64,000 nt of DNA from a bacterium (GCA_037200965.1 JBBCGK010000001.1:896260-960259), one strand, 5' to 3'; numbered from the stretch's first letter, positions 4,425 through 58,085 are shown. The notes: generated from the sequence alone by a model not told the origin. Program-made: numbers and translations.

Positions 4425-4427
4425 AGA

Positions 4428-4458
4428 CAAATGCCGGGCGTTGCCACCCGGCATTTAA
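4428..4458. terminator. Bidirectional intrinsic terminator between gyrB (+) and the minus-strand gene 4474..5010
   Basis: Perfect 10-bp stem aaatgccggg/cccggcattt with an 8-nt loop. An A/T-rich flank lies on both sides. Confidence 0.55.
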
Positions 4459-4473
4459 CTCCCCGCTTTGAAC

Positions 4474-7989: not shown

Positions 7990-8018
7990 TTGACAACAAG
8001 GCGACGGCAGTGTAATCT
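7990..8018 (+). promoter_or_regulatory. Candidate sigma70-type promoter for the large surface-protein gene
   Basis: TTGACA (7990-7995), a 17-nt spacer, then TAATCT (8013-8018). A nested palindrome gtgccacggcac lies just downstream. Confidence 0.4.
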
Positions 8019-8035
8019 TTTGAGAGCGGGGAATC

Positions 8036-10519
8036 GTGCCACGGCACATCCCCGCCCTCTTTGTACGGGAATCAATCATGACCACCGAAACCACAACCAT
8101 TTCACAAAACAAAAAGAACATGAGCCCGCTCGTCACCGGGCTCTTGAGCGTGGTCGCGGTGCTCTCGATCGGCTTCAGTCTCGGCATCGTGACCGGGGTC
8201 GTGAACGTCCCTTTCACCGAAGCCTGCTGCGTTCTACCGCCTCCACCGATCGTCATCCCTCCACCGATCGTCATCCCTCCACCGATCATCCTTATCCCGA
8301 GCTGTTCGCTCGAAGTGGAACCGTCTTCCATACATCCCGGCGAAACCGCGACGCTTTCGTGGACTACCGTGAACGTAACGGGCGCGGAAATCGATCATGA
8401 CATCGGCGAGGTCGATCTCGACGGCACGTACGACGTATCTCCCTCGGAGACGACCGAATACACCATGACGGGCATGGGTCCCGGAGGCGAGACGATATGT
8501 ACCGCAACCGTCGAGGTCATACCGCCTCCTCCCCCCGCTCCTACTTGTACGCTCACCGCATCCCCGGCCTCCTTTACGGGCAGTGGCGTATCGACGCTCA
8601 CATGGACCACCTCGAATGCTACCTCGTTCACCATTAACCACGGCGTCGGTTCGGTAACTCCGGTTGCCAGCGGATCGAAAGTCGCTCCCGCCATAAGCGC
8701 GAATACTACGTATACCGGTACGGTAGAGGGGCCGGACGGGCAGCAGGATACCTGCACCGCAAGCGTCACCGTGACGCCCGTATCGCCTGGCACCCCGGCC
8801 TGTACGCTCACGGCCTCTCCGGCAAGTTTTACCGGCACGAGCGTGCAGCCAACCCTTACCTGGACCACCTCGAACGCAACCTCGTTCACTATTGACCATA
8901 CGATCGGTTCCGTAACGCCGGTGGGAAGCGGCTCGGTCTTGGCTCCCGCCATTACGACCACCACTACCTACACCGGTATCGCTACAGGTCTCGGCGGCAC
9001 TTCGCAGCCGTGTACGGCGACCGTCACGATAACCCTGCCGGGTGCGCCTGCATGTACGCTCACCGCATCCCCGGCCTCCTTTACGGGCAGTGGCGTATCG
9101 ACGCTCACATGGACCACCTCGAATGCTACCTCGTTCACTATTGATCATGCGATCGGCTCGCTTACTCCGGTCGCGGGCGGTTCCACGACGACGCCCAACC
9201 TTACGGCTACCATCACCTACACCGGTATCGCTACCGGTCCTGCAGGCACGTCGCTGCCCTGCACTGTAACTATTACCGTCACGCCATCCACGCCGGGGCT
9301 CGCGTGTACCCTCACCGCAGATCCGACCTCTCTCCCGGAGGGCGGCGGCACTTCGACCCTCACCTGGACTACGACCGGCGCTACGTCTTTCTCTATCGAC
9401 AATACTATCGGTGCGGTATCTCCTCTGTCCGGCGGTTCCACGACGACGCCGAAGATCACGGACGACACGACGTTCACCGGCACGGTAACCGGTCCTGCCG
9501 GAACCAATAGTTGTACCGCGCAAATCACGGTCGCCGCCAAACCGAGCTGTACGAGCGGTTGCGGAGGGGGCGGAGGAGGAGGGGGCGGCGGCGGTCGCCG
9601 TGTCAGCCGTCCGCACGTGACGCTTGATGTCCTCAAGCAGCCGGATGTCGAACCGCTCGCCTTCGTCTATCTTTCGCAAATTCCCTATACCGGCCTCGAT
9701 CTCGGGCCTGTCGGCACCGTCGCATACTGGGTCGCGCTCGTCGCATGGAGCCTCGCGGTCGCGTATCTTGCGCTCTTCATCCTCCTGCCGTATCTCAGGC
9801 GCCGCATGCAGCGGTTTGCGGAGGCCGTAACCGAGACGCTGAACGCCGAGCAGCTTGCACCCGAAACCGCCCCGGCATATCGTCCGGAGCCCGCCAAAGC
9901 CCCGGTCATGCGCGCGTCCGCAGCGCAGAACGCCGCTCGCGGGTACTCCACGTACGACGGATTCCGTTCGTTCGCGAAGTCCGGCAGCCTCTCGATCGAC
10001 GATATCGTGAAGGGTCTTGCGCGCGAGTCCGCGCCCGACGACGCGGTCGTACATTCCGAGCGCATCGTGGCCCGCGCCCAGAAGACGGAGCCGATCTATG
10101 AGAGCGTCGAGCCTATCTATGGAAATGTCGAACCGGTGCATTCGAGCGCGGCACCCGCTCGCCAGGCACCGCAGGCAAACGCGGCCCCGGTGCATCCTGA
10201 GGTGCCGGGCTTCATCGAAGCCCTTCTTAAGGGCGAGCGGGAAGTGGTATTCGGCGCCGTCCGCGCTACGGTCCGCGCCGGGGGAGACGCCGAAGCGTTC
10301 CTCACCCAGGTCGTCTGCGCGCTTGATGACGCGTACCGCGCGCGTACGGAAGGCACGCCGGTGCATCCGGAGGTGGCGCGCATCACGAACGATTGCGCGA
10401 CCTCCTTCCTCGAACGCCTCGTGACCTCGCTTTCGACTGCAGTCGACTCAAGCTACTCGCAGGGCATCACGGGCGCGAAGCTCGCGCTCACCAGGGCGCT
10501 TGCCGTTACGGGAGCGTAA
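8036..10519 (+). CDS. Large surface protein with five tandem Ig-like repeats, poly-Gly tract, internal sortase-signal-like TM segment and C-terminal domain of unknown function
   Basis: 827 aa. N-terminal TM, then a PPPIVI proline repeat. Five repeats of about 85 aa follow (CTLTASPASFTG...TWTTSNATSFTI.H.IGSVTPV...TYTG...CTATVTV), then G13. The segment LSQIPYTGLDLGPVG-hydrophobic helix-RRR is followed by about 250 aa. Start could alternatively be 8078 or 8120. Confidence 0.75.
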   Translation: MPRHIPALFVRESIMTTETTTISQNKKNMSPLVTGLLSVVAVLSIGFSLGIVTGVVNVPFTEACCVLPPPPIVIPPPIVIPPPIILIPSCSLEVEPSSIHPGETATLSWTTVNVTGAEIDHDIGEVDLDGTYDVSPSETTEYTMTGMGPGGETICTATVEVIPPPPPAPTCTLTASPASFTGSGVSTLTWTTSNATSFTINHGVGSVTPVASGSKVAPAISANTTYTGTVEGPDGQQDTCTASVTVTPVSPGTPACTLTASPASFTGTSVQPTLTWTTSNATSFTIDHTIGSVTPVGSGSVLAPAITTTTTYTGIATGLGGTSQPCTATVTITLPGAPACTLTASPASFTGSGVSTLTWTTSNATSFTIDHAIGSLTPVAGGSTTTPNLTATITYTGIATGPAGTSLPCTVTITVTPSTPGLACTLTADPTSLPEGGGTSTLTWTTTGATSFSIDNTIGAVSPLSGGSTTTPKITDDTTFTGTVTGPAGTNSCTAQITVAAKPSCTSGCGGGGGGGGGGGRRVSRPHVTLDVLKQPDVEPLAFVYLSQIPYTGLDLGPVGTVAYWVALVAWSLAVAYLALFILLPYLRRRMQRFAEAVTETLNAEQLAPETAPAYRPEPAKAPVMRASAAQNAARGYSTYDGFRSFAKSGSLSIDDIVKGLARESAPDDAVVHSERIVARAQKTEPIYESVEPIYGNVEPVHSSAAPARQAPQANAAPVHPEVPGFIEALLKGEREVVFGAVRATVRAGGDAEAFLTQVVCALDDAYRARTEGTPVHPEVARITNDCATSFLERLVTSLSTAVDSSYSQGITGAKLALTRALAVTGA
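8235..8297 (+). repeat. 21-bp tandem repeat (about 3 copies) encoding PPPIVI motif
   Basis: ccaccgatcgtcatccctcca repeats directly, with a variant third copy. Confidence 0.5.
8305..9545 (+). repeat. Five tandem coding repeats of about 250-255 bp; copies at about 8536-8660 and 9055-9170 are nearly identical at DNA level
   Basis: The 100+ bp stretch tgtacgctcaccgcatccccggcctcctttacgggcagtggcgtatcgacgctcacatggaccacctcgaatgctacctcgttcac occurs twice, near 8541 and 9061. Diverged copies lie near 8800 and 9300. Confidence 0.7.
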
Positions 10520-10582: not shown

Positions 10583-12346
10583 TTAAGAACGCGTTTTGAT
10601 TTCCCTGAGCGCTTTCGCGGCAAAATCTGCCTGCTGCATCGCGTCGAGCTTGCCGTGGTCCCGGCTTTCAACAGAAACCGTACCAGATTCTTGTTCTTTG
10701 TCGCCGACGACAAGTACGTACGGAACCTTCTCGAGTTTTGCCGCGCGCACTTTCTTGCCGAGGGACTCGTTCGACGAATCTGCCTCCGCGCGGATATCGG
10801 CTGCCTTGAGCGTTGCCAGAACCTCTCTGGCATATCCGTCATGCTTCTCCGAAACCGGAAGCACCTTCACCTGCACGGGCGAGAGCCAGAGCGGAAAAGC
10901 TCCGCCGAAATGCTCGATCAGGAAACCGAAGACACGCTCCAAGCTGCCGATCGTAGAACGATGGATCATGACCGGTCGTTTCTTTTGTCCGTCCGCGTCT
11001 ATGTATTCGATATCGAATTTTTGGGGAAGCAGGAAATCCATCTGGGCAGTAAAAAGAGTATCCTCTTTGCCGTTCACGTTTTTTGCCTGCACGTCGAGCT
11101 TCGGGCCGTAAAAAGCGGCCTCGTCTTCCGCCTCGACATACGGAAGCCCGAGTTCATCGAGCGCTTCTTTCATAAGTCCCTCTGCAAGATTCCAGAGATC
11201 GTCGTCGGGATAATATTTTTCCTTGTTATCAGCATCCCGCTTCGAGAAGCGATATGAGACGACATCGATAAGACCAAGGCCTTTCATTCCCTCGACGATC
11301 ATCGTGCATACGCTCTTGAATTCCTCCTTGAGCCCTTCCCGGGTTACGAAAATATGTCCGTCGGTAAGCTGGAACTTGCGGACACGGATCATGCCCATGA
11401 GCTCTCCCGATTTCTCATATCGGTTATAGTCGGCTATTTCCGCGTAACGCACGGGCAGATCCTTATAGCTCCACTGTTTTCTCTGGAACATCCGAATATG
11501 ATGGGGGCACGCCATCGGGCGCAGGTAGAACTTGTCCCCGTCCATGTCGATAGGCGCATACATATTGTGCGCGTAATGGTCGAGGTGTCCTGAAATACGA
11601 TACAGCTCCTCGCCTCCGAGATATGGCGTCGACACATGCTCATAGCCATATTTGCGTTCGAGTTCCCGTGCGAAGTTCTCCATTTCGAATTTCACCGCAG
11701 TGCCCTTCGGCGTCCACAAAGGAAGGCCTTTGCCGACTTTTTCATCGATCAAAAAGAGGTCCAGCTCGCGGCCAAGCCTCTTATGATCGCGCTTCTCCGC
11801 CTCCTCTCTTCGCATACGATAGGCCTCCAAGTCCTCTTTAGTCTCAAACGCGAGCCCGTAGATGCGGGTCAGCTGCGCGTTCTTCTCGCTACCGCGCCAG
11901 TACGCGCCTGCAATACGGTCGAGGGCGAACGACTCGGGGGCGATCTCCTGTGCCGGGTTATCTGCCTGACCGCCACGGCAAAGATCCGAATACGCGCCGG
12001 AAGTATAAAATGAAACCTTCTGTCCGTCGGCGGTAAATTCGTCGATCAGTTCCTGTTTATAGGGATTCCCCGGGTACTGCGCCTTCGCTTCCTCGGCCGA
12101 AAGTTCCGAACGCGTGAATGAGGTCCAGGTCGGAAGCAGTCTGCGCATGACTTTCTCGATCTCGGGAAAATCCTTCTCCGATATCGGTTTCGAAAATTCG
12201 AAATCGAAATAGAAGCCGGTATCGATCGCAGGGCCGATAGTCCGCTTGGTGTCCGGCCACAGTTCCATGACCGCGGCGGCCAGGAGATGCGCAAGCGTAT
12301 GCCGTTTTTCTTCAAGCGTTGCCATAGGATATAGAGAATAGCACAC
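10583..12346 (-). CDS. thrS: Threonine--tRNA ligase (short form lacking N-terminal TGS/editing extension)
   Basis: 587 aa with class II aaRS core and anticodon-binding domain (HRSTIGSLERVFGFLIEHFGGAFPLWLSPVQVKVLPVSE...). GTG at 12346 or ATG at 12325. Lies immediately downstream of dnaE. Confidence 0.9.
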   Translation of the reverse strand: MCYSLYPMATLEEKRHTLAHLLAAAVMELWPDTKRTIGPAIDTGFYFDFEFSKPISEKDFPEIEKVMRRLLPTWTSFTRSELSAEEAKAQYPGNPYKQELIDEFTADGQKVSFYTSGAYSDLCRGGQADNPAQEIAPESFALDRIAGAYWRGSEKNAQLTRIYGLAFETKEDLEAYRMRREEAEKRDHKRLGRELDLFLIDEKVGKGLPLWTPKGTAVKFEMENFARELERKYGYEHVSTPYLGGEELYRISGHLDHYAHNMYAPIDMDGDKFYLRPMACPHHIRMFQRKQWSYKDLPVRYAEIADYNRYEKSGELMGMIRVRKFQLTDGHIFVTREGLKEEFKSVCTMIVEGMKGLGLIDVVSYRFSKRDADNKEKYYPDDDLWNLAEGLMKEALDELGLPYVEAEDEAAFYGPKLDVQAKNVNGKEDTLFTAQMDFLLPQKFDIEYIDADGQKKRPVMIHRSTIGSLERVFGFLIEHFGGAFPLWLSPVQVKVLPVSEKHDGYAREVLATLKAADIRAEADSSNESLGKKVRAAKLEKVPYVLVVGDKEQESGTVSVESRDHGKLDAMQQADFAAKALREIKTRS

Positions 12347-16848: not shown

Positions 16849-16931
16849 GCTCCGCATTGTGCACAGGAGAAACCGCCGCGCCCTTGCGCGGCGGTTTGCG
16901 CTTGCTACGATACCTGTGTTGTTCATTCGAT

Positions 16932-17861
16932 ATGGCTAACCGACATCTTGCGCGCTCTGTCGTCCTCCAAACGCTCTTTGAGTGGGATACTACAGCTGCC
17001 TCAAGTGAAAGCGCGCACGAGACGCTCAAGAGAAATGTCGAAGAATTCGGCGGAGACGATGCCGATGCGCCGTTCATGTCGAAACTCCTCGACGGGGTGC
17101 TCGCCAAGCGGGACGACCTCGACCTCATCATCGCCAAGGCCGCTCCCGAATGGCCCCTCGAAAAGATCGCTCCCGTGGACCGTAACATTTTACGCCTCGG
17201 GCTTTTCGAGCTTCTCTTCGCCGACCGCACCCAGGTCCCGGCCAAGGTGGCCATAAACGAGGCGATAGAGCTCGCGAAGACGTTTGGAGGAGATTCCTCC
17301 GGGCGGTTCGTGAACGGGGTGCTCGGCGCCGTATACAAGGAGATAGGAGAGCCGGGCAAGGACGAAGTCAGCAAGAAAAAGCAGGTAAAATACGAAGATA
17401 TTCCGCTCCAGCGGCTGGGCGGCGCGGTCGTCTATGCAAAGCACGAGGGCGAGTACTATCTCGCCCTCGTGCATGACGTGTTCGGGCATTGGACCCTTTC
17501 GAAGGGCAAGATCGGCGATACGCCGGAAACCGCGAATGAAACGACCGAAGAAGGCACGGCGCGGAAAGTACGGGCGGAGATCGGCCTCGACGTAACGATC
17601 GAGGAGCAGGTCGGCGAGAACGAATACGTCGCGACGCATCCGGAGAATGGCAAGCTCCGAAAGCGCGTCACCTATTTCCTCGCGCGCGCGCAGTTCGAAC
17701 CCCTCCAGCTTGAAGCGAACAAAGGGGGACTCGACGACGTCAAATGGTTCCGCCTCTCGGACATTCTTGACCTCAATTTCTACGATGATATGCTCCCCAT
17801 CGTCACGAACGCCGTCCAGAAACTCCTCGACCGCGCCCGCGCCACTACTGTAAATGCCTGA
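16932..17861 (+). CDS. nusB: NusB antitermination factor fused to a C-terminal Nudix-like hydrolase domain
   Basis: N-terminal NusB (MANRHLARSVVLQTLFEWD...VDRNILRLGLFELLF...AINEAIELAKTFGGDSSGRFVNGVLGAV). The C-terminal about 150 aa carry a degenerate Nudix box (GKIGDTPETANETTEEGTARKVRAEIGL). The stop overlaps the rnc start (ATGCCTGA). Confidence 0.8.
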   Translation: MANRHLARSVVLQTLFEWDTTAASSESAHETLKRNVEEFGGDDADAPFMSKLLDGVLAKRDDLDLIIAKAAPEWPLEKIAPVDRNILRLGLFELLFADRTQVPAKVAINEAIELAKTFGGDSSGRFVNGVLGAVYKEIGEPGKDEVSKKKQVKYEDIPLQRLGGAVVYAKHEGEYYLALVHDVFGHWTLSKGKIGDTPETANETTEEGTARKVRAEIGLDVTIEEQVGENEYVATHPENGKLRKRVTYFLARAQFEPLQLEANKGGLDDVKWFRLSDILDLNFYDDMLPIVTNAVQKLLDRARATTVNA

Positions 17862-18867: not shown

Positions 18868-18934
18868 GACGGGCTCCTGTATATCCGTCCTCACACAGCA
18901 CTCGCGCCATGCGCGGGTGCTGTATACTTTTTAT

Positions 18935-21900
18935 ATGCTCAAGCGGCTCGAAATCGCCGGGTTCAAATCGTTCGCACGGAAGACCGTGCTCGATTTCTCG
19001 TCCTCGGTGACGTCGATCGTGGGGCCGAATGGATCTGGGAAGTGCGTGACGGGCGATACGCTCCTTGCGCGCCGGACGGCTTCGGGGGAAGCGGAAGACG
19101 TCGCGATCAAAGACATCCGTCGCGGCGACGAGGTACTCGCGCTTGACGAGGCGACGGGCGCTTTCGTGAGCGCCCGCGTGAACGCGCTCCTCGATTCGGG
19201 CACCAAAGACGTGTGTGAGCTTGTCACGGAAAGCGGCAAGCGCATTCGTACGACCGCGGAGCACCCTTATCTCGCCGCTCCGGAGGCCCGGCCAGTTCCC
19301 GAGCGTCCGCGCATCGGCGTGTTTATTGATAACTCGAATCTCTATCATGGGGCGCGAAAGGCCGGGTGGCAGATCGATTTTGGCAAGCTCCGCGCGCTGC
19401 TTGAAGCAAGCGCCGACCTTCGCATCATGCGCTATCACGTCGCGGTTCCGGAAGCCGGGGATCCCGCGCATGAAGCCGCGCGCAAGCATCTGCGGGCGGT
19501 CGCCCCGTACGTGACGGTGCTCGAAAAGCCGCTCAAGTATATTGCCGGAAGCAACGGATCGGTCGTAAAGAAGGGAGATATCGACATCGACCTCGCCCTG
19601 GATGTCGTGCGGCATCTGCCGCTTCTCGACGTCGCGATAATCGTGAGCGGGGACAGCGACTATCTGGGGCTTGAGCAGTACGTGCAGCGGCAAGGGAAAG
19701 CGGCCCTATTCCTCTCATTCAAGCGGTCGATGGCGTGGGAGTTGCGCTTGAAGCCGCATATCTTTGCGGAGCGCATCCGCCCGTGGATCGAGCGCAGAGG
19801 AACGCAAAACCCCGAGCTTTCGCTCGGGGCAGTGTTGGTAGCGCCAATTATACAGGCATCGCTCAAGCGCGCAAGCCCCGGGCGCGAGACCCGTGTGGAT
19901 ACTATCGGTTCATGGACTCGCGTCATGCATCTTGCTATCGGTTCGCGCATCGCGACGCTCTCTGCCTCCGGAGCGCTCACGTTTGAAGCAGTTGCGTCGA
20001 TATCCGTTCTTCCCGCTGAACGGGTATATGACATTGAGGTGGAAGGAGTTCATAACTTCGTGGGAAACGGTATCGTCGCGCACAACAGCAACGTTGCCGA
20101 AGCTTTCCGCTTCGCGCTCGGGGAACAGTCGATGAAGTCGATGCGCGGGAAACGAAGCGAAGACCTCATCTTTTCGGGCTCGCACACCGCACAGCGCTCA
20201 AACCGTGCCGCGGTCGCGGTCGTTTTCGATAATTCCCGCAAGCAATTCAAGCTCGACTTTAACGAGGTGGTGATCGAGCGCGCGGTATTTCGCGACGGGA
20301 CGAGCGAATACTCGATCAACGGGTCGAAAGCGCGCCTTCGCGACATCCAGGAGCTTCTTGCAGGCGCCAATATCGGCGAGACCGGGCACCACATCATCTC
20401 CCAGGGCGAGGCCGATCGGATACTCGCGGCTTCAAGCGCCGACCGGCGCGAAATGCTTGAGGAAGCGCTCGGGCTCAAGATTTTCGAATTCAAGAAGCAG
20501 GAGAGCGAGAAGAAACTCCAGAAGACCGAGGAGAATATCGGACAGGTGGAGGCGCTCCGGAGGGAACTCGCGCCGCACTTGAAGTTCCTCGGGAAGCAGG
20601 TCGAGAAGCTCGAACGCGCGGAGGAAATGCGGCGCGAGCTCGGAGCCGCGGCGAGGACGTACCTCGCGATCGAGGATGCCTATCTTCGGGAAGAAAAGAA
20701 GCGTGCCGAAAGCGCGAAAGTCTCCGCGGCGGAGCGCCTTGCGAAAGCGTCCGCGGAACTTGCCGCGGTCACCGACCTCACGGCAAGCGACAGCGAAGCC
20801 CTGAAGCGCTTCGAAGCCGTACGGCAGTCGGAAGCTCTTGCCGAGCGGATTACCTCCTCGCGGGCCGAACTTGCGCGCGAGCTCGGGAAGACGGAAGGTG
20901 CGCTTGAGGGAGCAAAAAGGCGAAGCGCCGCAGTCGCCCGCGACCCGTACGCGAAGATACCGCGGGAAGACCTGACGGCTCTTCGGGACGAGGTTGAGCG
21001 GCAGGCCGAAGGCGCGGGAGAAGGTGTCGAGTCGCTGCGCGCCGCACTCGCCGCGATACGCTCGGCAACGCGCGCTTTCTTCGAGCGCTTCGCGGTTTCG
21101 GGTGCCGCGTACCTTGCGGAGGAGGAGCGCGAGACGTTCGCGCTTGAGGAAGAGCAGAAAAGGCTCGTCGCGAAAGACGCGGAGCTCGCTGCCGAGCTTG
21201 AAAAAGCGCGGGCGGCGCTTGCCCGAGCCCGCGAAGAAGCCCGCGCCCGCGAAGAGGCGGGGCGCGAAAGCCAGCACCGCACGCTGCAGGTCGCGGAGGC
21301 AAAGGCTTCCGCGGAGGCGGAGACGGAACGGTTCGGCGCGCGCCTTCGCGAGCTTGCCTTCCTTGCCGAAGAGCTCCAGAGGGACACGGCCGAAGTACTC
21401 GCGCTTGCGGGTGCCGAGGCCGTCTCGTACGCGCCCCTGTCGGAGCTTCCGCGGGAAGAGCGCCGGGCGCAGGAAGACCGCAAGCGCGCGCTTGAGCGCC
21501 TCAAGATACGGCTTGAGGAAGCGGGCGGCGGCGGGGAACAAATACGCAGCGAATACAAGGAGGTCTCGGAGCGAGAGAGTTTCCTTGCGCGGGAGCTTGA
21601 GGATCTTGCGAAGTCGGCCGCAGGGCTTCGGGAACTCATAACCGAGCTCGATACGGAACTCGGCAAGAGTTTCGCGGAGGGGCTTCAGAAGGTTAACGCG
21701 TCGTTCGGGGAATTCTTCGCGCTCATGTTCGGGGGCGGAAGCGCCCGGCTTGTGCTTGAAGAGCCCGAAGACGATGAAGAGGAAGACGAGGAACGCGAAA
21801 CAAGCACGCCACGCAGGGAAATGCGTCCGGGGATCGAGATATCGGTTGCCCTCCCGAAAAAGCGCGTGCAGTCGCTCATGCAGCTTTCAGGCGGCGAGCG

Positions 21901-22180
21901 GGCGCTCACGTCGATCGCGCTCATCTTTGCCATGAGCCAGGTGAATCCGCCGCCGTTTTTGATACTTGACGAGACGGACGCGGCCTTGGACGAGGCCAAC
22001 AGCCGCCGCTACGGCGACATGATCGAGAACCTCTCGAAGAAATCCCAGCTTATCGTCATCACGCATAACCGCGAGACCATGAGCAGGGCGGGCATCCTCT
22101 ACGGCGTGACAATGTCGGGCGACGGCGTCTCGAAGCTCCTTTCGGTCAAATTCGACGAGGCGGTTGCGGTGGCGAAGTAA
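18935..22180 (+). CDS. smc: SMC-family chromosome partition ATPase (hinge-less, about 740-aa extein) interrupted by an intein after Walker A
   Basis: N-terminus MLKRLEIAGFKSF...VGPNGSGK, then the intein, then SNVAEAFRFALGEQSMKSMRG...IFSGS. Long coiled-coil. C-terminal LSGGERALTSIALIFAM signature and LILDETDAALD D-loop. No hinge domain is discernible. A GTG at 18917 is an alternative start. Confidence 0.85.
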   Translation: MLKRLEIAGFKSFARKTVLDFSSSVTSIVGPNGSGKCVTGDTLLARRTASGEAEDVAIKDIRRGDEVLALDEATGAFVSARVNALLDSGTKDVCELVTESGKRIRTTAEHPYLAAPEARPVPERPRIGVFIDNSNLYHGARKAGWQIDFGKLRALLEASADLRIMRYHVAVPEAGDPAHEAARKHLRAVAPYVTVLEKPLKYIAGSNGSVVKKGDIDIDLALDVVRHLPLLDVAIIVSGDSDYLGLEQYVQRQGKAALFLSFKRSMAWELRLKPHIFAERIRPWIERRGTQNPELSLGAVLVAPIIQASLKRASPGRETRVDTIGSWTRVMHLAIGSRIATLSASGALTFEAVASISVLPAERVYDIEVEGVHNFVGNGIVAHNSNVAEAFRFALGEQSMKSMRGKRSEDLIFSGSHTAQRSNRAAVAVVFDNSRKQFKLDFNEVVIERAVFRDGTSEYSINGSKARLRDIQELLAGANIGETGHHIISQGEADRILAASSADRREMLEEALGLKIFEFKKQESEKKLQKTEENIGQVEALRRELAPHLKFLGKQVEKLERAEEMRRELGAAARTYLAIEDAYLREEKKRAESAKVSAAERLAKASAELAAVTDLTASDSEALKRFEAVRQSEALAERITSSRAELARELGKTEGALEGAKRRSAAVARDPYAKIPREDLTALRDEVERQAEGAGEGVESLRAALAAIRSATRAFFERFAVSGAAYLAEEERETFALEEEQKRLVAKDAELAAELEKARAALARAREEARAREEAGRESQHRTLQVAEAKASAEAETERFGARLRELAFLAEELQRDTAEVLALAGAEAVSYAPLSELPREERRAQEDRKRALERLKIRLEEAGGGGEQIRSEYKEVSERESFLARELEDLAKSAAGLRELITELDTELGKSFAEGLQKVNASFGEFFALMFGGGSARLVLEEPEDDEEEDEERETSTPRREMRPGIEISVALPKKRVQSLMQLSGGERALTSIALIFAMSQVNPPPFLILDETDAALDEANSRRYGDMIENLSKKSQLIVITHNRETMSRAGILYGVTMSGDGVSKLLSVKFDEAVAVAK
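19043..20086 (+). mobile_element. Intein (348 aa) in the SMC P-loop carrying a NYN/LabA-like PIN-fold nuclease domain instead of a canonical homing endonuclease
   Basis: Intein starts at Cys after GPNGSGK (block A CVTGDTLLA) and has block B TTAEHPY. Block F is VYDIEVEGVHNFVGNG and block G is IVAHN, followed by +1 Ser. Removing it reconstitutes GPNGSGKSNVAEAFRFALGEQS. The central about 150 aa hold NYN motifs GVFIDNSNLYH, DIDIDLALD and IVSGDSDY. Confidence 0.85.
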
Positions 22181-22185
22181 TCGTC

Positions 22186-23116
22186 TTCTAATCAACACCT
22201 TGGCACCACCTCCTTGAGTACTTGTGCCGGGGTCAGGAGATTCAGGCCGAAATGGTGCCGCTCCCGGTTGTACCAGGGGATGTATTTCTTCAGAGCCGCA
22301 TTGAACGCTTCCGGACTTCTGCGCGCATGGTCGAGGCACTCCTCCTGAAGCGTGCGGTTGAATCGCTCGATATGCGCATTGTCGTTGGGTTTCCCGATGC
22401 GGGAATACCGGTGCTTCCTCCGGATGCGCTCGACGAACCACGCCCCGAACTCGGGACCATGGTCGCTCTGGAGCATTTCGAAGCGGAAGGACGCTCTCCG
22501 CTGCGCCTCCTCGACGAAGCGCACGGCGGTCGCGGCATCCATGCGCGCATAGGTCTTCGCGTACGCGGTGCGGGAATGCACGTCGATGAGGGTGAAGGTA
22601 TACATCCGCTTCTTCAAATCGAGCATGGTGTGAATGGTGTCGATCTGGACGAGGGAACCGGGTTTCTCCGGCAGGGGGCGGTCGACCTGTGGGTGGTATC
22701 GCTTGTACGGGCTCCTCTTCTTGAGGAGGCCCATGCGGTCAAGCGTTCGCTTGATGGTGGAGAGTGAAATCACCACCCCTTCCTCCTCCAGTATGCGCTG
22801 AATGACTTCCGCGCTTCGCTTCGACTTGAGCCGGGTATGGAAGATCTTCCAGCGGAGTTCGTCTGAGAGCTGCCGGGGATGGCGCTTCGGACGCGACGAG
22901 CGCGTCGGTATCGGGTGGTATCCGATGCGTTCGGCCCTTCGCACCCATTTCATGACGGCGGTGTGATGGTACCCGAGATGCCGCCCGATCTTGCGCGCGC
23001 TCCAGCCTTGGCGGAAGAGATCCGCCGCTTCGCGGCGGATGCGGGGCATACGGGGGTTGGTGGTGTATGGCATGCGACTTGGCTTAGTGGTGCCAAGGTA
23101 TTGAACCATTACGAGT
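22186..23116 (-). mobile_element. IS481-family insertion sequence (about 0.93 kb) inserted at the smc stop codon
   Basis: Terminal imperfect inverted repeats: left ...TAATCAACACCTTGGCACCAC (22189-22209); right reverse-complement CTCGTAATGGTTCAATACCTTGGCACCAC (23087-23116). Single DDE transposase ORF. A possible 5-bp direct repeat GTAAT lies at 22177-22181 and 23115-23119. Exact ends uncertain by a few bp. Confidence 0.65.
22192..23109 (-). CDS. IS481-family DDE transposase (start 23109 or 23073)
   Basis: N-terminal HTH (RIRREAADLFRQGWSARKIGRHLGYHHTAVMKW). rve integrase core LVQIDTIH...DHGPEF...KPNDNAHIERFNRTLQEE with a D,D,E triad. Confidence 0.8.
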   Translation of the reverse strand: MVQYLGTTKPSRMPYTTNPRMPRIRREAADLFRQGWSARKIGRHLGYHHTAVMKWVRRAERIGYHPIPTRSSRPKRHPRQLSDELRWKIFHTRLKSKRSAEVIQRILEEEGVVISLSTIKRTLDRMGLLKKRSPYKRYHPQVDRPLPEKPGSLVQIDTIHTMLDLKKRMYTFTLIDVHSRTAYAKTYARMDAATAVRFVEEAQRRASFRFEMLQSDHGPEFGAWFVERIRRKHRYSRIGKPNDNAHIERFNRTLQEECLDHARRSPEAFNAALKKYIPWYNRERHHFGLNLLTPAQVLKEVVPRC

Positions 23117-23180
23117 AATTTGACACGTTTCCTCTTATAGAGTATTGTGCGCATAACGCATAGACGAAAAGGAGATTCGA

Positions 23181-23552
23181 ATGCGTAGCACATTCAAAGC
23201 GATAGTGGCAGCCGCGCTCATGCTTGCGCCTGTTGCTGCCGGGGCGGAGCCGGATTTCGCATATAACGAGAGAAGCCCGAGCGAGAAATGGCGAGACGAA
23301 CACATCACCTTCGCCTACTTCGGGCGGGAAATCAAAGGCACCGACTGGCTCGTCATCGGCCTCCATCCCGGAGACCGGAAGGTAACCGTCTCGCACCGGC
23401 ATAAGATCTATCGCGACTGGGGCTATGCGGAAGTGTTTTCGCTATCAGTAGGCGACTCAATCTTCCTCGAGCCGTCTACTGCATATCCATTTGGTCAAAA
23501 GGCGAAGCTCGTAGAGTTCGATGGCTACACCAGCATGTTCTGGATCCATTGA
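23181..23552 (+). CDS. Hypothetical secreted small protein (signal peptide)
   Basis: AAAAGGAGA RBS. N-terminal signal peptide MRSTFKAIVAAALMLAPVAAGA. No known family. Confidence 0.5.
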   Translation: MRSTFKAIVAAALMLAPVAAGAEPDFAYNERSPSEKWRDEHITFAYFGREIKGTDWLVIGLHPGDRKVTVSHRHKIYRDWGYAEVFSLSVGDSIFLEPSTAYPFGQKAKLVEFDGYTSMFWIH

Positions 23553-26343: not shown

Positions 26344-26454
26344 GTTATAAACACTGTATCAATACAGGGCGATTTATGCTATTGTCTGAACACACGGCAT
26401 GCGTCCTTCAGGAGCATCGCGGTGGCCCTTCCCGGGCGTTTCCTCCCTGAACTT

Positions 26455-26481
26455 GCGGCACCCCTGGTGCCGCCCTTTTTT
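26455..26481 (+). terminator. Orphan plus-strand intrinsic terminator between divergent rnr and rpsP
   Basis: 8-bp stem gcggcacc/ggtgccgc, loop cct, then cc+TTTTTT. No plus-strand CDS lies upstream. Could terminate a roughly 100-nt small RNA. Confidence 0.55.
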
Positions 26482-26486
26482 GCAAA

Positions 26487-26515
26487 TTGACTCGCAAGCC
26501 TTCTTTTGGTACCCT
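26487..26515 (+). promoter_or_regulatory. Candidate rpsP promoter placing the TSS 2-3 nt before the ATG (leaderless)
   Basis: TTGACT (26487-26492), 17-nt spacer, TACCCT (26510-26515). ATG at 26525 with no SD. Confidence 0.35.
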
Positions 26516-45852: not shown

Positions 45853-46239
45853 ATGAAGAAGGATTTTGACGGATGGAACGACCAGAAGAAGTCGATTGAC
45901 GAGCGTGCCCACGCGCCGCTCTATCATGAAGGTGAAGTTCGGTGGTGCCGCCTAGGCACGAACATCGGATTCGAGCAGGATGGTACCGGAAACGGCCGAG
46001 CGCGTCCGGTGCTTATCCTCAAAGGATTCAGCAGGCAAGTGTGCCTAGTCGTTCCGCTTACCAGTTCGCAAAAGAAGAATCCATACCATGTTTCTGCTGG
46101 AAGGATAGGAGGGCGTGATGCCTTCGCGATTATTTCCCAAGTGCGGCTTATCGATACGAAACGATTGGATCAGCCTCTCGTCTATCTCGAGCACGCAGTA
46201 TTTGAACGTATCAGAAAAGCCGTCAGAAACTTGTTCTGA
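45853..46239 (+). CDS. PemK/MazF-family endoribonuclease toxin, apparently solitary
   Basis: EGEVRWCRLGTNIGFEQDG...RPVLILKGF..VCLVVPLTSS...ISQVRLIDTKRL fits the PemK/MazF pattern. No small antitoxin ORF lies adjacent (78-nt and 83-nt flanks). Confidence 0.65.
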   Translation: MKKDFDGWNDQKKSIDERAHAPLYHEGEVRWCRLGTNIGFEQDGTGNGRARPVLILKGFSRQVCLVVPLTSSQKKNPYHVSAGRIGGRDAFAIISQVRLIDTKRLDQPLVYLEHAVFERIRKAVRNLF

Positions 46240-49022: not shown

Positions 49023-49781
49023 CTAATAGTATGCCATGACAAGCCGGGGGCGGCCATAGTGGTCGTTGCGCAACCCGGCGCGCATAGCGCCGTTCTTCGT
49101 GAAAAGAGCGAGCGCTTCCGGGCCGCGCCCGCTATCGACTTCGCACCAAAGCTCGCCGCCAGGATTCATATGCGCCGGCGCGGTTTTAGCGATTTCGCGG
49201 ATAAGAGACAGTCCGTCGCTTCCGGCAAACAGCGCCAGCCGCGGTTCCCACGCGGCTACGTCCGCGTCGAGCGCCCGGCCTTCGGGAATATAGGGCGGAT
49301 TGGCTGCGATCACGTCAAAGGTCTCATCGCCAAACGGTTTGAAGAGATCCCCCGTCCTCACCCGGCAGCGCCGCTCGTCAAGCCCGTTCGAGCGCATGTT
49401 GTTCCCGATCTGCGCGGCGTGTTCCGGAACAAGTTCCCCGAAGGATACTTCCGCATCCGGTATGTGCTTAAGCACGGCAAGACCGATCGCGCCCGATCCC
49501 GCACACATATCGAGAAAGCGAAAGTTCCGCGTTCCGAATCGCGACCTCAGATGCGCGATCATGTTTTCCGTCCACCATTCCGTTTCGGGGCGGGGGATAA
49601 GCGGCCGGGAGCCGAGTCCTATCCTAAGTCCGAGAAAGGGTATCCAGCCGATCACGTATGCGAGCGGTTCGCCGCTTGCAAGGCGCGCCCGGTCGCGTTC
49701 GAACTCTTCGCATGCTCTGCCGGCGTATTTTTCATCGAGAAGCTGCCGCTCTTCTTTGGTAAGCACGGTCATCGGCCGCAT
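49023..49781 (-). CDS. prmC: Release factor glutamine methyltransferase (PrmC/HemK); start uncertain (49772-49865)
   Basis: SAM-binding DMCAGSGAIG and catalytic NPPY (IAANPPYIP). Confidence 0.75.
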   Translation of the reverse strand: MRPMTVLTKEERQLLDEKYAGRACEEFERDRARLASGEPLAYVIGWIPFLGLRIGLGSRPLIPRPETEWWTENMIAHLRSRFGTRNFRFLDMCAGSGAIGLAVLKHIPDAEVSFGELVPEHAAQIGNNMRSNGLDERRCRVRTGDLFKPFGDETFDVIAANPPYIPEGRALDADVAAWEPRLALFAGSDGLSLIREIAKTAPAHMNPGGELWCEVDSGRGPEALALFTKNGAMRAGLRNDHYGRPRLVMAYY

Positions 49782-50231: not shown

Positions 50232-50240
50232 CTATCCACA
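50232..50240 (+). promoter_or_regulatory. DnaA box (CTATCCACA, 8/9 to TTATCCACA) upstream of dnaA
   Basis: Seen directly. Single box in the 96-bp dnaA upstream region. Confidence 0.4.
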
Positions 50241-50327
50241 TTGCGTTTATGTACCCGAAGCATATACTCGCCCATTAGATAGAGGGGCTAATCAAGGTCT
50301 TTCTATAGAACCCGAAGGGGGTCAACA

Positions 50328-51773
50328 ATGAGCAATCAGGATACTACCACCGGTGGCCCTCCAAAGGATACTGGATGGGATGCCGCATGGTCTGGCGCGC
50401 GCGAGCGCCTCCGGAAAGAACTCGGCGATGCCACGTTCAACGCATGGATCGGCCCACTCAGGCTCGTCAGCGCCGATAGGGACAATATCCAGATCGGCGC
50501 GGCAAAGCCGTTCGCACGCAATTGGGTGGCCAACCATTACGTTACCCGCATCGACCGCGCGCTTCGGGCGGAAGGCAAAGCTCCCGACTCGCTCTCGATC
50601 GTGCTTTGCACCTCGGTACCGCCGCCGAACACCGGGGCGGTTACCAGCGGCACTCCGGTCGAGCTTCCTCCGTCAGCCTATCCGGCGTCAGCGCTCATGC
50701 GTAACGGCGAAAAGCCTGCGGCAGAGCCGAGAAACCTCTGGAACAGGCCGCTTCATCCGAGCCAGACCTTCGGCAGTTTCGTCGCGGGCTCGGAGAACGA
50801 GTTCGGATACCGCGCGGCGGAAAGCTTCGCGGATGGCAGCACCGAAAGCGGGCTGCTCTATATCCACGGCGGCTTCGGCTACGGCAAGACGCATCTTCTG
50901 AACGCGACCGCGCTCGAAGCGCGCAAACGCGGGAAGAGGGCGCTGTTTCTCGGCGCGGAGGATTTCATGCGCCAGTTCCTCGGTGCGCTGCACCGGCGGG
51001 ACACGCTTTCCTTCAAGGACGAGCTTCGGGCTGCCGACATGCTGCTGATCGACGATCTACAGCACATCTGCCGCTCGCACACGACCGTGTCGGAATTCCT
51101 CCATACCGTGAATGCCTTCGCCGATTCGCGCCGGAAACTCATCGTCGCTGCCGATCGCGCGCCGGCGGCCCTCGAAACGCTGAGCGCTGATGTCAGGTCG
51201 CGCCTTACGGGCGGCCTTACGATCGGGCTCGATAAGCCGGGCCGGGACACGCGTTTGGCGATTCTCAAGTCGCGCGCGAACGAGTTCACCCGCGCAAGGC
51301 CGCACGCGGTGCTTCCCGAAGAAGTGCTCGAGCGCATCGCCGATATGCCGGACGCGAGTCCGCGCGATCTCCTCGGCGTGTTCACGAAGCTTGCCACCTA
51401 CGCCGACCTCACCAAGAAGCCGGTCACGCTTGATGTCGCCGAAGAGGCCGTCGGCCAGCGCTCCGCGCCCGGCCGCAAGATCTCGATCGAGGACATCCAG
51501 CGCAAGACCGCCGAGTTCTACAAGCTCGACATCCGCGACTTCCAGTCGCCGCAGCGCACCCGCAGGGTGGCCCGGCCAAGGCAAGTGGCGATGTTCCTCG
51601 CGCGCGAGCTCACGATGCGTTCGCTTCCCGAAATCGGGCGGCGGTTCGGCGGGCGGGACCATACCACGGTCCTGCATGCCTGCCGTCGCATCGCGGAACT
51701 TTGCGAAGAAGACAGGGACTTCAAGGACGAAGTCGGGTTCCTTCGGGACATGCTTACGCGTCGCGGCCTTTAG
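50328..51773 (+). CDS. dnaA: Chromosomal replication initiator protein DnaA
   Basis: AAA+ core (GGFGYGKTHLL, LIDDLQH, sensor motifs). C-terminal domain IV HTH is RPRQVAMFLARELTMRSLPEIGRRFGGRDHTTVLHACRRI. Confidence 0.92.
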   Translation: MSNQDTTTGGPPKDTGWDAAWSGARERLRKELGDATFNAWIGPLRLVSADRDNIQIGAAKPFARNWVANHYVTRIDRALRAEGKAPDSLSIVLCTSVPPPNTGAVTSGTPVELPPSAYPASALMRNGEKPAAEPRNLWNRPLHPSQTFGSFVAGSENEFGYRAAESFADGSTESGLLYIHGGFGYGKTHLLNATALEARKRGKRALFLGAEDFMRQFLGALHRRDTLSFKDELRAADMLLIDDLQHICRSHTTVSEFLHTVNAFADSRRKLIVAADRAPAALETLSADVRSRLTGGLTIGLDKPGRDTRLAILKSRANEFTRARPHAVLPEEVLERIADMPDASPRDLLGVFTKLATYADLTKKPVTLDVAEEAVGQRSAPGRKISIEDIQRKTAEFYKLDIRDFQSPQRTRRVARPRQVAMFLARELTMRSLPEIGRRFGGRDHTTVLHACRRIAELCEEDRDFKDEVGFLRDMLTRRGL

Positions 51774-51790
51774 GCGCGACGCGGAGTTTC

Positions 51791-51824
51791 AAGGGCGGCG
51801 CGCTACGGCGGCCGCCCTTTTTTC
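51791..51824 (+). terminator. Intrinsic terminator downstream of dnaA
   Basis: Stem gggcggc/gccgccc with a GC-rich interior, then TTTTTT. Confidence 0.65.
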
Positions 51825-51910
51825 TAATCAACACGACTTTATTTCCCGTTAATATTTCTATGCTTTACTTATCCCGGACGAGTAGTTCGGATGTTCAAGG
51901 AGCAAGGACA

Positions 51911-52135
51911 ATGGCCTGGACACATGCAAGGAAGATGCAGCTCAAATCTCTCTGGACGGAAGGGCTTCCCGCGAGCAAGATCGCGAAGGAGCTTGGCATC
52001 ACGCGCAATGCCGTGATCGGCAAGGCGCACTATCTTGATCTCCCAAGGCGCGATGACCCTTCGCTGCCGCGCACCAAAAAACCGCCGCGCGCGACGGTGA
52101 AAATCGACCGCAGCAAGTCGACCTATCCAGTATAG
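51911..52135 (+). CDS. GcrA-like N-terminal DNA-binding domain protein (75 aa)
   Basis: AAGGAG RBS. MAWTHARKMQLKSLWTEGLPASKIAKELGITRNAVIGKAHYLDLPRR aligns closely with the Caulobacter GcrA N-terminus (MSWTDERVELLKKLWTDGLSASQIAKQLGGVTRNAVIGKVHRLGLSGR). Confidence 0.65.
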   Translation: MAWTHARKMQLKSLWTEGLPASKIAKELGITRNAVIGKAHYLDLPRRDDPSLPRTKKPPRATVKIDRSKSTYPV

Positions 52136-52159
52136 AAAGGACACGTCTTCTGCCGTTGC

Positions 52160-52199
52160 AAAATAAAACGGCCCGCAACACGCGGGCCGTTTTATTTTT
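52160..52199. terminator. Bidirectional intrinsic terminator between the gcrA-like gene (+) and the RRM protein gene (-)
   Basis: 12-bp perfect stem aaaacggcccgc/gcgggccgtttt, loop aacac, flanked by A-runs and T-runs. Confidence 0.7.
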
Positions 52200-52206
52200 G
52201 GAAATG

Positions 52207-52569
52207 TTAGTAGTTTCCGCCGGACGAGTAGCCTCCGCGGCCACCGCCGTATCCGCCACCGTTTCCTCCGCGGTTACCACCGCCGAAACCTCCGCGGTCG
52301 CCTCCTGCCGGGCGCTCGCCCTGCGGGCGCGCGAACGATACGGAGAGCGTGCGGCCGCCGAAGTCCTTGCCGTCCCAGCGGTCGATTGCCGCCTGGGCCT
52401 GCGCTTCATCCGCCATCTCGACGAAGCCGAAGCCGCGCGAGCGACCCGTCATGCGGTCGGAGATAATGCTGACCGACGTGACCGTGCCTGCTTCCTCGAA
52501 AGCGGCGCGGATTTCGTCTTCAGTTGATCGGTAGGGGAGACCTCCGATGTAGAGCTTATTTGTAGCCAT
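52207..52569 (-). CDS. Glycine-rich RNA-binding protein (RRM domain)
   Basis: RNP2 LYIGGL and RNP1 RGFGFVEM. C-terminal RGG/GGY-rich tail. Confidence 0.8.
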   Translation of the reverse strand: MATNKLYIGGLPYRSTEDEIRAAFEEAGTVTSVSIISDRMTGRSRGFGFVEMADEAQAQAAIDRWDGKDFGGRTLSVSFARPQGERPAGGDRGGFGGGNRGGNGGGYGGGRGGYSSGGNY

Positions 52570-52862
52570 GCTATGCGTTAACTGTATAAGCTCGCCGATA
52601 CCGAACACTTTCTGGCTCACGCCGCGAAGCTCTGGAAAACTGCGAGTTGCACCCAGTATGCTACACCCTTGCCCAAAGCGCAAGGGAGGTGTGTATAACG
52701 CCTATTGTACCGGATTCGCCGGAATCGTCCGGACATTCGTGATGATTCCGGGATCCCGAGTTGTCGCGTCGGACGCGATCGTCCTCATAAGGACGGTCGG
52801 GACAAGGAACGTGAGCATGCTGAGCCCGAGAAGGGCGACGAGGATTATGACGAATGTTTTCT

Positions 52863-56974: not shown

Positions 56975-58085
56975 CATTTCATGCATTGTCTAATGTCTAT
57001 ATGGCTACTCTCAACCTCTAACTGCCCGCATATGATACCACGTATGTATACCCACCTAACGTTCGAGGAACGAGAATGCATTGGTCTTATGCGTGCAGCC
57101 TACTTCTGGCCAGTCGAAATCGCACGCGAGCTCAATCGCGATCCTAAAACCATCAGACGAGAGCTCAGACGCTCGAAACCGTTGTTTGAAGGATACCGAC
57201 CAAGCCGGGCACACAAAGATGCACGAAAGAAAAAGAAAATCCCGAGACGCGGGAAGAAGCTCAACTACGCGCCTCTTCAGCGTGTCGTGTATGCAAAGCT
57301 CCGGCTTCGCTGGAGCCCGGAGCAGATTGCGCAGTACTTGAAACAGCACTACGCTACAGATACTCGTATGCAAGTCTCCCACGAATCCATCTACACCTAT
57401 ATCTATGTGCTCCCGCGCGGGAGCCTCCGCAAGGAGCTTACGTCGTACCTGCGCCAGGGCGCCGAAGGGCGCAGGCGCAGGTATCGGGTGCACGACAGGC
57501 GAGGAAAGATACCCAATATGGTGAGTATTCACGAGCGCCCCAAAGAAACGGAAGACCGCTCAGTACCTGGACACTGGGAGAGCGACCTCATTATCGGCAA
57601 AGGACATCAATCAGCCATTGCGACCTTGGTGGAACGCACCACGCGCATGACCATTCTGGTGCCGCTCAGAGAAAAGACCGCTCCTGCGGTGCGCATGGCA
57701 CTTACGAAAACCGTGAAGAGCTTGCCCCGCGAAGCCTTCCGATCAATCACCCATGATCGCGGCAGCGAGATGGCTGAGCACGAACTCTTCACCAAAGAGA
57801 CCAGGGTGCAGGTGTATTTCGCTGATCCACAAAGCCCGTGGCAGCGTGGTACAAACGAAAATACCAATGGCCTTATTCGTCAGTATTTCCCCAAGGGAAC
57901 GGACTTCCGGCGGGTGCCAACTAAGTATTTGAAGCAAGCGCAGAAGCAGCTCAATACTCGGCCCAGAAAAGCTATCGGCTTCAAAACACCTGAAGAAGCA
58001 TTTGCGCTATTATTAAAGAAGCGGGCATTTAGAGTTTGAATTCAAGATGTCTCTCGATGGATTCCCAAGAGGCTTTAATTAAGAA
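56975..58085 (+). mobile_element. IS30-family insertion sequence (ends not resolved), low GC
   Basis: Single IS30-type transposase gene in an approximately 50% GC segment between the macA-like start and a convergent low-GC gene. Terminal inverted repeats could not be identified by eye. Confidence 0.45.
57044..58039 (+). CDS. IS30-family transposase
   Basis: N-terminal HTH (LTFEERECIGL...). DDE domain with HWESDLIIGKG, ITHDRGSEM and YFADPQSPWQRGTNENTNGLIRQYFPKGTD. Confidence 0.8.
   Translation: MYTHLTFEERECIGLMRAAYFWPVEIARELNRDPKTIRRELRRSKPLFEGYRPSRAHKDARKKKKIPRRGKKLNYAPLQRVVYAKLRLRWSPEQIAQYLKQHYATDTRMQVSHESIYTYIYVLPRGSLRKELTSYLRQGAEGRRRRYRVHDRRGKIPNMVSIHERPKETEDRSVPGHWESDLIIGKGHQSAIATLVERTTRMTILVPLREKTAPAVRMALTKTVKSLPREAFRSITHDRGSEMAEHELFTKETRVQVYFADPQSPWQRGTNENTNGLIRQYFPKGTDFRRVPTKYLKQAQKQLNTRPRKAIGFKTPEEAFALLLKKRAFRV

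Follow-up and report, generated by a model that had tools for sequence, protein, structure and literature searches.

DnaA serves as a marker of the chromosomal origin and is taken to be inherited vertically. In Caulobacter, as Collier et al. are said to have found in 2006, DnaA also activates transcription of gcrA, and this DnaA-to-GcrA circuit is a functional pair in Alphaproteobacteria. Here we describe a locus in which the two genes are physically adjacent: positions 50,232 to 52,199 of a 64,000-nucleotide stretch of bacterial DNA (GCA_037200965.1, JBBCGK010000001.1:896260-960259; this whole stretch is called the window below, and positions are counted from its first letter). The locus holds a dnaA gene that appears to be foreign to its host and to combine two sources, followed by a small gcrA-like gene. 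Caulobacter crescentus GcrA, known from structures of its DNA-binding domain (5YIU/5YIV) and of the full-length protein (7YE1), has a three-helix DNA-binding domain, a linker and a sigma70-interacting domain (residues 108-173), and its pocket for N6-methyladenine is formed by R33, N34, I37 and G38 (PMC5887438). Caulobacter phages encode GcrA-like "host takeover" genes (PMC3556154, PMC13459779). Transfers into Patescibacteria from other phyla, including Pseudomonadota and including replication and repair functions, have been described, in a study of horizontal gene transfer whose text contains zero occurrences of DnaA (PMC12455944). In the literature we found no report of an alphaproteobacterial DnaA in Patescibacteria, nor of an initiator captured from two donor clades at one locus, nor of a mosaic allele.

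The dnaA gene is complete:

50328-51773, plus strand: dnaA, 481 aa, full length (TIGR00362, 375.3 bits against an equivalog cutoff of 343.9)

Its product scores above the gathering thresholds for PF11638 (DnaA_N), PF00308 (Bac_DnaA) and PF08299 (Bac_DnaA_C), and the translation shows GGFGYGKTHLL, LLIDDLQ and RDHTTVLHA, representing the Walker A and B motifs and the helix-turn-helix of domain IV. We infer an active, ATP-dependent DnaA-box binder, which would recognize boxes of the TTATCCACA type that are common in this genome group. The best 80 GTDB matches, taken as one genome per GTDB species, are all labelled Alphaproteobacteria or (Pseudomonadota/)Proteobacteria, at 66-77% identity, and many of them are Rhizomicrobium (order Micropepsales). 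Identity to the Micropepsales/Rhizomicrobium-like DnaA proteins is maintained at 66-78% along the whole length. These chromosomal DnaA proteins (from loci L003 to L082; we number loci with L and proteins with P) have the same three-domain layout, and the window protein is sister to that of L003. In L003 and L005, the closest alphaproteobacterial loci examined, the order is rpsT-dnaA-dnaN-recF-gyrB, whereas dnaA in the window stands alone between Parcubacteria genes. For the 14 window genes that flank dnaA, no homologue lies 6 kb or less from dnaA in any of the 80 alphaproteobacterial loci, and phage and plasmid records hold no DnaA relative above 37% identity. On these comparisons dnaA is itself a foreign gene of alphaproteobacterial descent, which would account for the missing dnaN.

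The gene shows no sign of decay. The ratio of nonsynonymous to synonymous substitutions (dN/dS) ranged from 0.08 to 0.25, with 0.18 for the pair formed by the two sister species introduced below (L172 and L085) and 0.08 for the window and L003, dS being saturated. The G+C content at third codon positions is 0.78, against 0.73-0.84 in host genes. Among the 281 columns conserved in alphaproteobacterial DnaA, the window protein departs at 20 and L003 at 18, so that it deviates no more than its Micropepsales/Rhizomicrobium-like relatives do. These values indicate a gene that is under purifying selection in three species.

The host, by contrast with its DnaA, is assigned to the Parcubacteria (Patescibacteria, among the ultra-small bacteria of the candidate phyla radiation, CPR) because of the affinities of HisRS, which is 60-73% identical to proteins named Parcubacteria, Paceibacterota, Minisyncoccia or Patescibacteria, and of a DUF1360 protein with homologues at 59-83% identity in Paceibacterota/Kaiserbacteria. 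The window further carries pheT, gyrB, a sortase gene, dnaE, rnhB, rpmF, rnc, the RNase R gene, trmD, rpoB, rpoC, dnaG, rpoD, a UvrD-like helicase gene and hisS. An alphaproteobacterial host, a thought prompted by the DnaA matches and by a match to the small RNA mmgR, was ruled out by HisRS, DUF1360, GyrB, gene content and synteny. The GyrB proteins of the window (684 aa) and of the alphaproteobacterium L003 (807 aa) have just 46% identity, compared with 78% for the DnaA pair. The same locus with the same junctions was recovered in the 960-kb contig, in a 9.4-kb contig of another assembly and in a Logan assembly. The window and the 9 kb that follow it on the right revealed neither dnaN nor a second, native dnaA. 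An original prediction, made from the sequence of the window, had already pointed out the absence of dnaN from it and the distance of 48 kb to gyrB:

2370-4424: gyrB

The borders of the foreign DNA could be placed by comparison with related genomes. They involve the following features, of which prmC and the DUF1360 gene lie upstream of dnaA as the original prediction had it:

49023-49772, minus strand: prmC/HemK-like methyltransferase gene, upstream of dnaA
49794-50231, plus strand: DUF1360 membrane-protein gene (PF07098), native, left border of the insertion
52160-52198, no strand: perfect 17-bp inverted repeat I7, 100% complementary, with A and T runs on its flanks
52207-52620, minus strand: gene for an RRM-type RNA-binding protein with a Gly-rich tail (PF00076), native, right border of the insertion

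Relatives were compared through the hisS neighbourhood. About 20 Parcubacteria loci have the order RRM-(DUF1360)-prmC-small open reading frame-bPH-hisS-exonuclease without dnaA or the gcrA-like gene, and in relatives the RRM protein is 81-97% identical and its gene abuts DUF1360 or prmC. At the empty sites L086, L104 and L149 only a terminator hairpin separates the stop codon of DUF1360 from the convergent RRM gene. The arrangement in which dnaA adjoins DUF1360 was seen only in the window genome and in two sister species, L085 and L172 (both JGI samples); the flanking proteins of the three are about equidistant, with HisRS 72-75% identical. The inserted DNA begins with a DnaA box right after the DUF1360 stop and ends before the inverted repeat, which reads as a bidirectional terminator between the convergent gcrA-like and RRM genes, at the position of the native DUF1360/RRM terminator. 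We consider it very probable, from this comparison, that 50232-52156 is a laterally acquired insertion in a Parcubacterium chromosome. About 20 related genomes have the conserved flanks but not the segment, so this site is no ancestral origin.

The locus shows no flanking direct or inverted repeats, integrase, att site or phage structural genes. A mobile element was ruled out by the lack of flanking repeats and of a close phage or plasmid relative of DnaA. The neighbours of the insertion are housekeeping genes, and the nearest transposase gene is 5 kb off. That gene (56981-58039, plus strand; HTH_38 and rve domains, IS30-like) is missing at the matching place in L172; a second rve-domain transposase gene lies at 22192-23193 on the minus strand. 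A scan of the island against Rfam returned only sub-threshold, terminator-like matches.

Comparison of the three CPR genes suggests that the window dnaA has a composite history. The first 16-20 or so residues of DnaA, with a "GGP(P/S)" motif and an insertion of 5-6 residues, are common to the three CPR species only. Residues shared with the CPR sisters cluster at positions 7-20, and those shared with L003 span the rest of the protein. In neighbour-joining trees (82-83 sequences, 459 columns) the window DnaA was sister to L003 in 99-99.5% of 200 bootstraps and never grouped with L085 or L172, which grouped together in 60%, near a Rhizomicrobium clade. Rare derived residues of the window DnaA were shared with L003 in 23 cases and with L085 in 3, and the preference for L003 was present in every 60-residue window of the protein. 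A single acquisition followed by fast evolution was rejected for the gene body by the bootstraps, the rare states and the sliding identity; it was kept for the leader and the N-terminus. The window dnaA thus reads as a mosaic, with an N-terminus as in the CPR sisters and a remainder like L003. A common leader in front of coding bodies that fall into different alphaproteobacterial clades implies two or more transfers into this one locus.

The leader of dnaA contains three elements of interest:

50232-50240, plus strand: DnaA box CTATCCACA, one mismatch to TTATCCACA, the first bases of the inserted DNA
50241-50268, plus strand: dnaA promoter-like element, with -35-like TTGCGT (50241-50246), a 16-nt spacer and -10-like TATACT (50263-50268)
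50314-50321, plus strand: dnaA ribosome-binding site GAAGGGGG, 6 nt before the ATG at 50328 and inside the invariant block ACCCGAAGGGGGT

The 96-nt leader has a homologous counterpart in both sister species but not upstream of dnaA in any of the 80 alphaproteobacterial loci, so that, compared with the Micropepsales/Rhizomicrobium-like genes, the leader, the promoter-like element and the first 16-20 or so residues are specific to the CPR lineage. Both hexamers and their spacing are invariant in the window, L085 and L172. The invariant blocks are, in order, T.TCCACATTGCGTTT (box and TTGCGT), the 16-nt spacer, ATATACTC (TATACT) and ACCCGAAGGGGGT (ribosome-binding site). A consensus promoter scan with a -35 threshold of 4/6 matches made no call at this leader. 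The near-consensus DnaA box reported at 50232 by the original prediction is present, and it occupies the same leader position in the sisters, as CTATCCACA in L172 and TTCTCCACA in L085. It was found neither in the empty sites nor in the 260 nt upstream of dnaA in the 80 alphaproteobacterial loci. Taken alone, a single one-mismatch box within 96 nt of leader would carry little weight, though it is kept at the same position in two other species. As the box abuts the -35-like hexamer, we propose that it is probably an autoregulatory operator through which DnaA represses its own promoter, and that dnaA would be expressed from this conserved promoter-like element. Such a layout suits autorepression rather than an origin.

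The gene downstream of dnaA encodes a truncated relative of GcrA:

51911-52135, plus strand: gcrA-like gene, 74 aa, with the DNA-binding domain at residues 1-45 and a basic disordered tail

The original prediction had described a 75-aa protein with the GcrA N-terminal domain. The length proved to be 74 aa; the domain was borne out by PF07750 (61.9 bits against a gathering score of 26.9), and the family is indeed unexpected here, the host being a Parcubacterium. The PF07750 match covers only profile positions 1-65 of 155, and the NCBIfam GcrA equivalog NF050816 scored 60.2 bits, below its cutoff of 280. Residues 1-45 matched Caulobacter GcrA in the PDB (7YE1, E 1.6e-12; 5YIU, E 4e-11). An AlphaFold model has three helices, with pLDDT 87-92 over residues 1-40 and a low-confidence tail from residue 45, and it superposes on 5YIU with a root-mean-square deviation of 0.7 A at 62% identity. 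W3, W15 and the pocket residues R, N, I and G of TRNAVIGK are kept, matching the Caulobacter protein. Unlike Caulobacter GcrA, the window protein has a one-residue deletion before the recognition helix, lacks both the linker and the sigma70-interacting domain, and belongs to a host that is not an alphaproteobacterium. Whereas the homologues P0004 and P0020, 110-125 aa long, do have the sigma70-interacting domain and its CCCH zinc finger, the 74-aa protein has neither this domain nor a Cys/His motif, and for want of that domain it cannot be a sigma70 cofactor. It would be able to bind GANTC-type sites but not to recruit RNA polymerase. Most likely it is a small occluding DNA binder that acts by occupancy, a domesticated or passenger phage take-over gene.

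Phages offer the closest counterparts. Short GcrA-like proteins of phages (L089, L090, the IMG/VR loci L175-L180 and the phiCbK type) have the same domain. The best-scoring homologue, P0002 (L089), and P0014 (L090) are short proteins consisting of the DNA-binding domain only, and the phage-like contigs that encode them carry genes for a primase, a terminase and a portal protein. P0002 and IMG/VR proteins have the same one-residue deletion, yielding ELG-ITRN, as the 74-aa protein, and P0002 has the RRDDP motif in common with it as well. No phage protein exceeds 63% identity to the window protein over the domain. A phage derivation, raised in the original prediction, is thus favoured by the closest relatives and not by the surroundings: the window gene is chromosomal and directly follows dnaA, with no att site, prophage gene or other phage feature around it. 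A match to phrog_16311, a PHROG of unknown function, was obtained at E 1.9e-9, and INPHARED gave one weak GcrA-like match only, in Phaeobacter phage MD18. The GcrA domain family comprises 6,986 cluster representatives, and the 74-aa protein is alone in its 50%-identity cluster.

Two side observations concern the same domain. In phage contig L090, the gene encoding only the GcrA DNA-binding domain (8001-8261) lies about 2.4 kb from a gene for a 191-aa protein (10697-11272) with a weak Bac_DnaA_C match, so that, by these matches, a phage combines DNA-binding modules of the GcrA and the DnaA type. Many of the strongest matches to the domain (P0282-P0284 and others) are long proteins with 2-11 tandem domain copies, an architecture of which we know of no description for GcrA.

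L172 has just 70 bp between dnaA and the RRM gene and no gcrA-like gene there, and the L085 locus ends before that point. The gcrA-like gene is not seen in the available sister loci and is therefore probably dispensable. Its adjacency to dnaA was not inherited from the donors, as gcrA is not beside dnaA in any of the 80 alphaproteobacterial loci. In contrast to the Caulobacter circuit, GcrA is truncated here and its upstream region contains only a two-mismatch TAATCAACA word and no good box. Among the window genes scanned there was no CcrM-type methyltransferase (N6_N4_Mtase). The observed/expected ratio of GANTC in the window was 0.51 under a first-order (dinucleotide) model and 0.90 under a third-order model, compared with 0.73/0.96 in CPR relatives and 0.34/0.62 in alphaproteobacterial loci; several other palindromes are as depleted as GANTC, and the third-order model removes most of the effect. 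Separately, L172 carries a Tsp45I-like restriction enzyme gene and an N6_N4 methyltransferase gene (2825-4907) between rpoD and a DsbA-like gene, where the window has the UvrD-like helicase gene; the rpoD/DsbA-like flank is variable, given this difference in content.

The original prediction had interpreted the locus as a non-canonical origin neighbourhood, and two features after dnaA bear on this idea. The terminator and the AT-rich stretch that it described behind dnaA were both located:

51793-51823, plus strand: intrinsic-terminator-like hairpin GGGCGGC...GCCGCCC followed by TTTTTT, downstream of dnaA, read from the sequence
51816-51875, plus strand: AT-rich stretch between the dnaA terminator and the gcrA-like ribosome-binding site AAGGAG (51897-51902)

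A terminator scan limited to loops of 3-8 nt did not report the hairpin, whose loop exceeds that limit. The AT-rich stretch, about 60 bp with about 65% A+T in a genome of 60% G+C, holds a weak candidate promoter (-35 TCAACA at 51828-51833, 16 nt, -10 TAATAT at 51850-51855), and its sole box-like word is the two-mismatch TAATCAACA at 51825. Since L172 lacks both the stretch and the gcrA-like gene, the stretch belongs to the gcrA-like cassette. It is more likely to be the promoter region of that gene than the DNA unwinding element it had been taken for.

The window contains 12 DnaA boxes with at most one mismatch where 4.8 are expected, and 5 of the 12 lie at 46-52.7 kb. Box-like 9-mers (TTATCCACA, at most one mismatch) reach 1.9-2.6 times the composition expectation in this group of Parcubacteria (the window and L086-L171), with or without an alphaproteobacterial dnaA, compared with about 1.1-1.2 in alphaproteobacterial loci. 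As relatives without that dnaA show an excess of about 1.9-fold, like the window's, the window-wide excess is uninformative on the dnaA locus. A search for more boxes found no cluster: 50232-52206 has one box with at most one mismatch, and the intergenic pieces of the segment (96, 137 and 71 bp) have no box cluster. No oriC-type box cluster with an unwinding element was detected in the window, the best 600-bp windows having 5-6 boxes at up to two mismatches, mostly intragenic. GC skew ran from -0.05 to -0.03 across 49-54 kb with no sign switch, the 64 kb having several sign changes and being too short for a firm call.

We propose the following history as the simplest account and a likely one. 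A Micropepsales/Rhizomicrobium-like alphaproteobacterium would have supplied the ancestor of the three sampled sister species with a complete dnaA, which would have been inserted where the DUF1360 and RRM genes converge. A new promoter, specific to this lineage, would have come to drive the captured gene, and the DnaA box next to its -35-like hexamer would probably provide self-repression. In the window lineage, the body of the gene from about codon 17-20 on would then have been swapped for an L003-like allele of another alphaproteobacterial clade, the old leader and N-terminus being retained, and the small phage-type gcrA-like gene would have been added downstream, along with an AT-rich upstream region of its own. 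Such a history would account for the missing dnaN, for the single box and for the AT-rich stretch.

Four accounts of the locus can be set against these data. That it is a chromosomal origin of non-canonical type, with the 50232 box as part of oriC and the AT-rich stretch as its unwinding element, draws on the frequent proximity of dnaA to oriC, on the near-consensus box upstream and the 60 bp or so of AT-rich DNA downstream, and on the enrichment of box-like words, partly near the locus. We consider it quite unlikely. The site is empty in about 20 relatives, so any origin there would be imported; the lone good box sits on a conserved promoter-like element and no cluster exists in the intergenic pieces; the AT-rich stretch goes with the gcrA-like cassette and is missing in L172; skew does not change sign there (in a 64-kb window); and the box enrichment extends to relatives without this dnaA. 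The chance that an alphaproteobacterial dnaA was misjoined into a CPR contig during assembly or binning appears negligible. A contig number above 10,000 and the presence of Rhizomicrobium metagenome-assembled genomes in a neighbouring accession series (L076) might invite that suspicion, but the junctions are identical in the three assemblies, the arrangement recurs with diverged sequence in L085 and L172, the leader is conserved among the three species, and third-position G+C of dnaA matches host genes.

It could also be that the Parcubacterium is an episymbiont of Micropepsales-like Alphaproteobacteria and that DnaA and the GcrA DNA-binding domain interfere with the cell cycle of that host, as phages of Alphaproteobacteria appear to do. 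Captures from two alphaproteobacterial clades within one group, the pairing in phage L090 together with the takeover genes of Caulobacter phages (PMC3556154, PMC13459779), and a nearby DprA gene consistent with DNA uptake would agree with such a module. Neither protein, however, has a signal peptide or secretion feature, no delivery system was seen in the locus, and the box in the promoter of dnaA points to use within the CPR cell; we hold this account to be very improbable. In agreement with the proposed history, and its strongest functional reading, is xenologous displacement: the alphaproteobacterial DnaA would be the sole DnaA of the lineage and would fire an origin at another place. All three domains are present in the full-length gene, which is kept, at a dN/dS of 0.18, in three species whose HisRS proteins are only 72-75% identical; its own promoter has a DnaA box; paralogues are few in Patescibacteria genomes (PMC12455944); box-like words are over-represented group-wide, so that an alphaproteobacterial DnaA would find the same sites; and the replacement of one alphaproteobacterial allele by another suggests a generic box-binding role. 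Against this, DnaA must load the host helicase, cross-phylum swaps of interaction-rich proteins are rare, and no oriC-like region lies near the locus. We entertain displacement tentatively, as a real possibility. That this DnaA takes part in initiation of the host chromosome, as sole initiator or co-initiator, has in our judgement an even chance, and that it is an extra copy serving mainly as a regulator is a less likely but real possibility.

Several points weigh against the history of capture and renewal proposed above. A cross-phylum swap of an initiator that needs to fit the host helicase is unlikely a priori. The search for a native dnaA or dnaN covered the window and 9 kb to its right, a small part of the 960-kb contig, so that the role of this DnaA in replication stays conditional. 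The tree is a neighbour-joining tree with no outgroup or maximum-likelihood test, and the grouping of L172 with L085 may be fragile at just 60%. The direction of replacement is ambiguous: the window body could be the original one and the bodies of L085 and L172 the replacements. For the gcrA-like gene, too, a loss in L172 could stand in place of a gain in the window lineage, the L085 locus ending before that position. Finally, the -35-like TTGCGT fits the consensus at just 3/6 positions, and both the promoter hexamers and the autoregulation are deduced from conservation in three sequences only.

Some further observations were made in and around the window. A full-length match to the Rfam family RF00519 (suhB/mmgR), a small RNA family of Alphaproteobacteria, is located at 26418-26488 on the plus strand (51.2 bits against a gathering score of 41), in a gap of about 950 bp between the RNase R gene and trmD, and includes the GCCCUUC..GGGCGUUUCCUCCCU core and a terminator. 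It may be a second alphaproteobacterial element in a Parcubacterium genome. Some 8-9 kb past the right end of the window (L181, 1-826) are topA and a gene for DNA-processing protein A (DprA). This protein is in keeping with an ability to take up and recombine DNA, a point of interest where foreign alleles have been captured. Type II toxin genes are represented by a PemK/MazF-like gene (45853-46239, plus strand), missing from the sister loci, and by a HicA-like gene with an upstream partner near 60.6-60.9 kb. Adjoining rnc are a gene for a NusB-NUDIX fusion (309-334 aa; 16857-17861, plus strand) and a 1087-aa open reading frame without a Pfam match (18917-22180, plus strand).

Our findings describe a complete and selected CPR dnaA of alphaproteobacterial descent, which appears to be a mosaic of two donors and stands at a site that is empty in relatives. 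Used as a guide to the origin or to the placement of the genome, dnaA would mislead here. The widest picture would be that of a CPR lineage that replaced its own initiator with an alphaproteobacterial DnaA and then renewed its body from a second clade, possibly while living on Micropepsales-like hosts and feeding on their DNA, one species adding a phage-type GcrA DNA-binding domain; we offer this picture as a rather doubtful one. If these organisms are episymbionts, the donor clade, Micropepsales/Rhizomicrobium-like, would be a testable lead to an uncultured host. The GcrA DNA-binding domain, for its part, occurs beyond Alphaproteobacteria and their phages, in a minimal, sigma-independent form. 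If the captured gene is the only DnaA of the lineage, this would be a case of cross-phylum displacement of a replication initiator, and an essential, interaction-rich replication gene would then be exchangeable across phyla.

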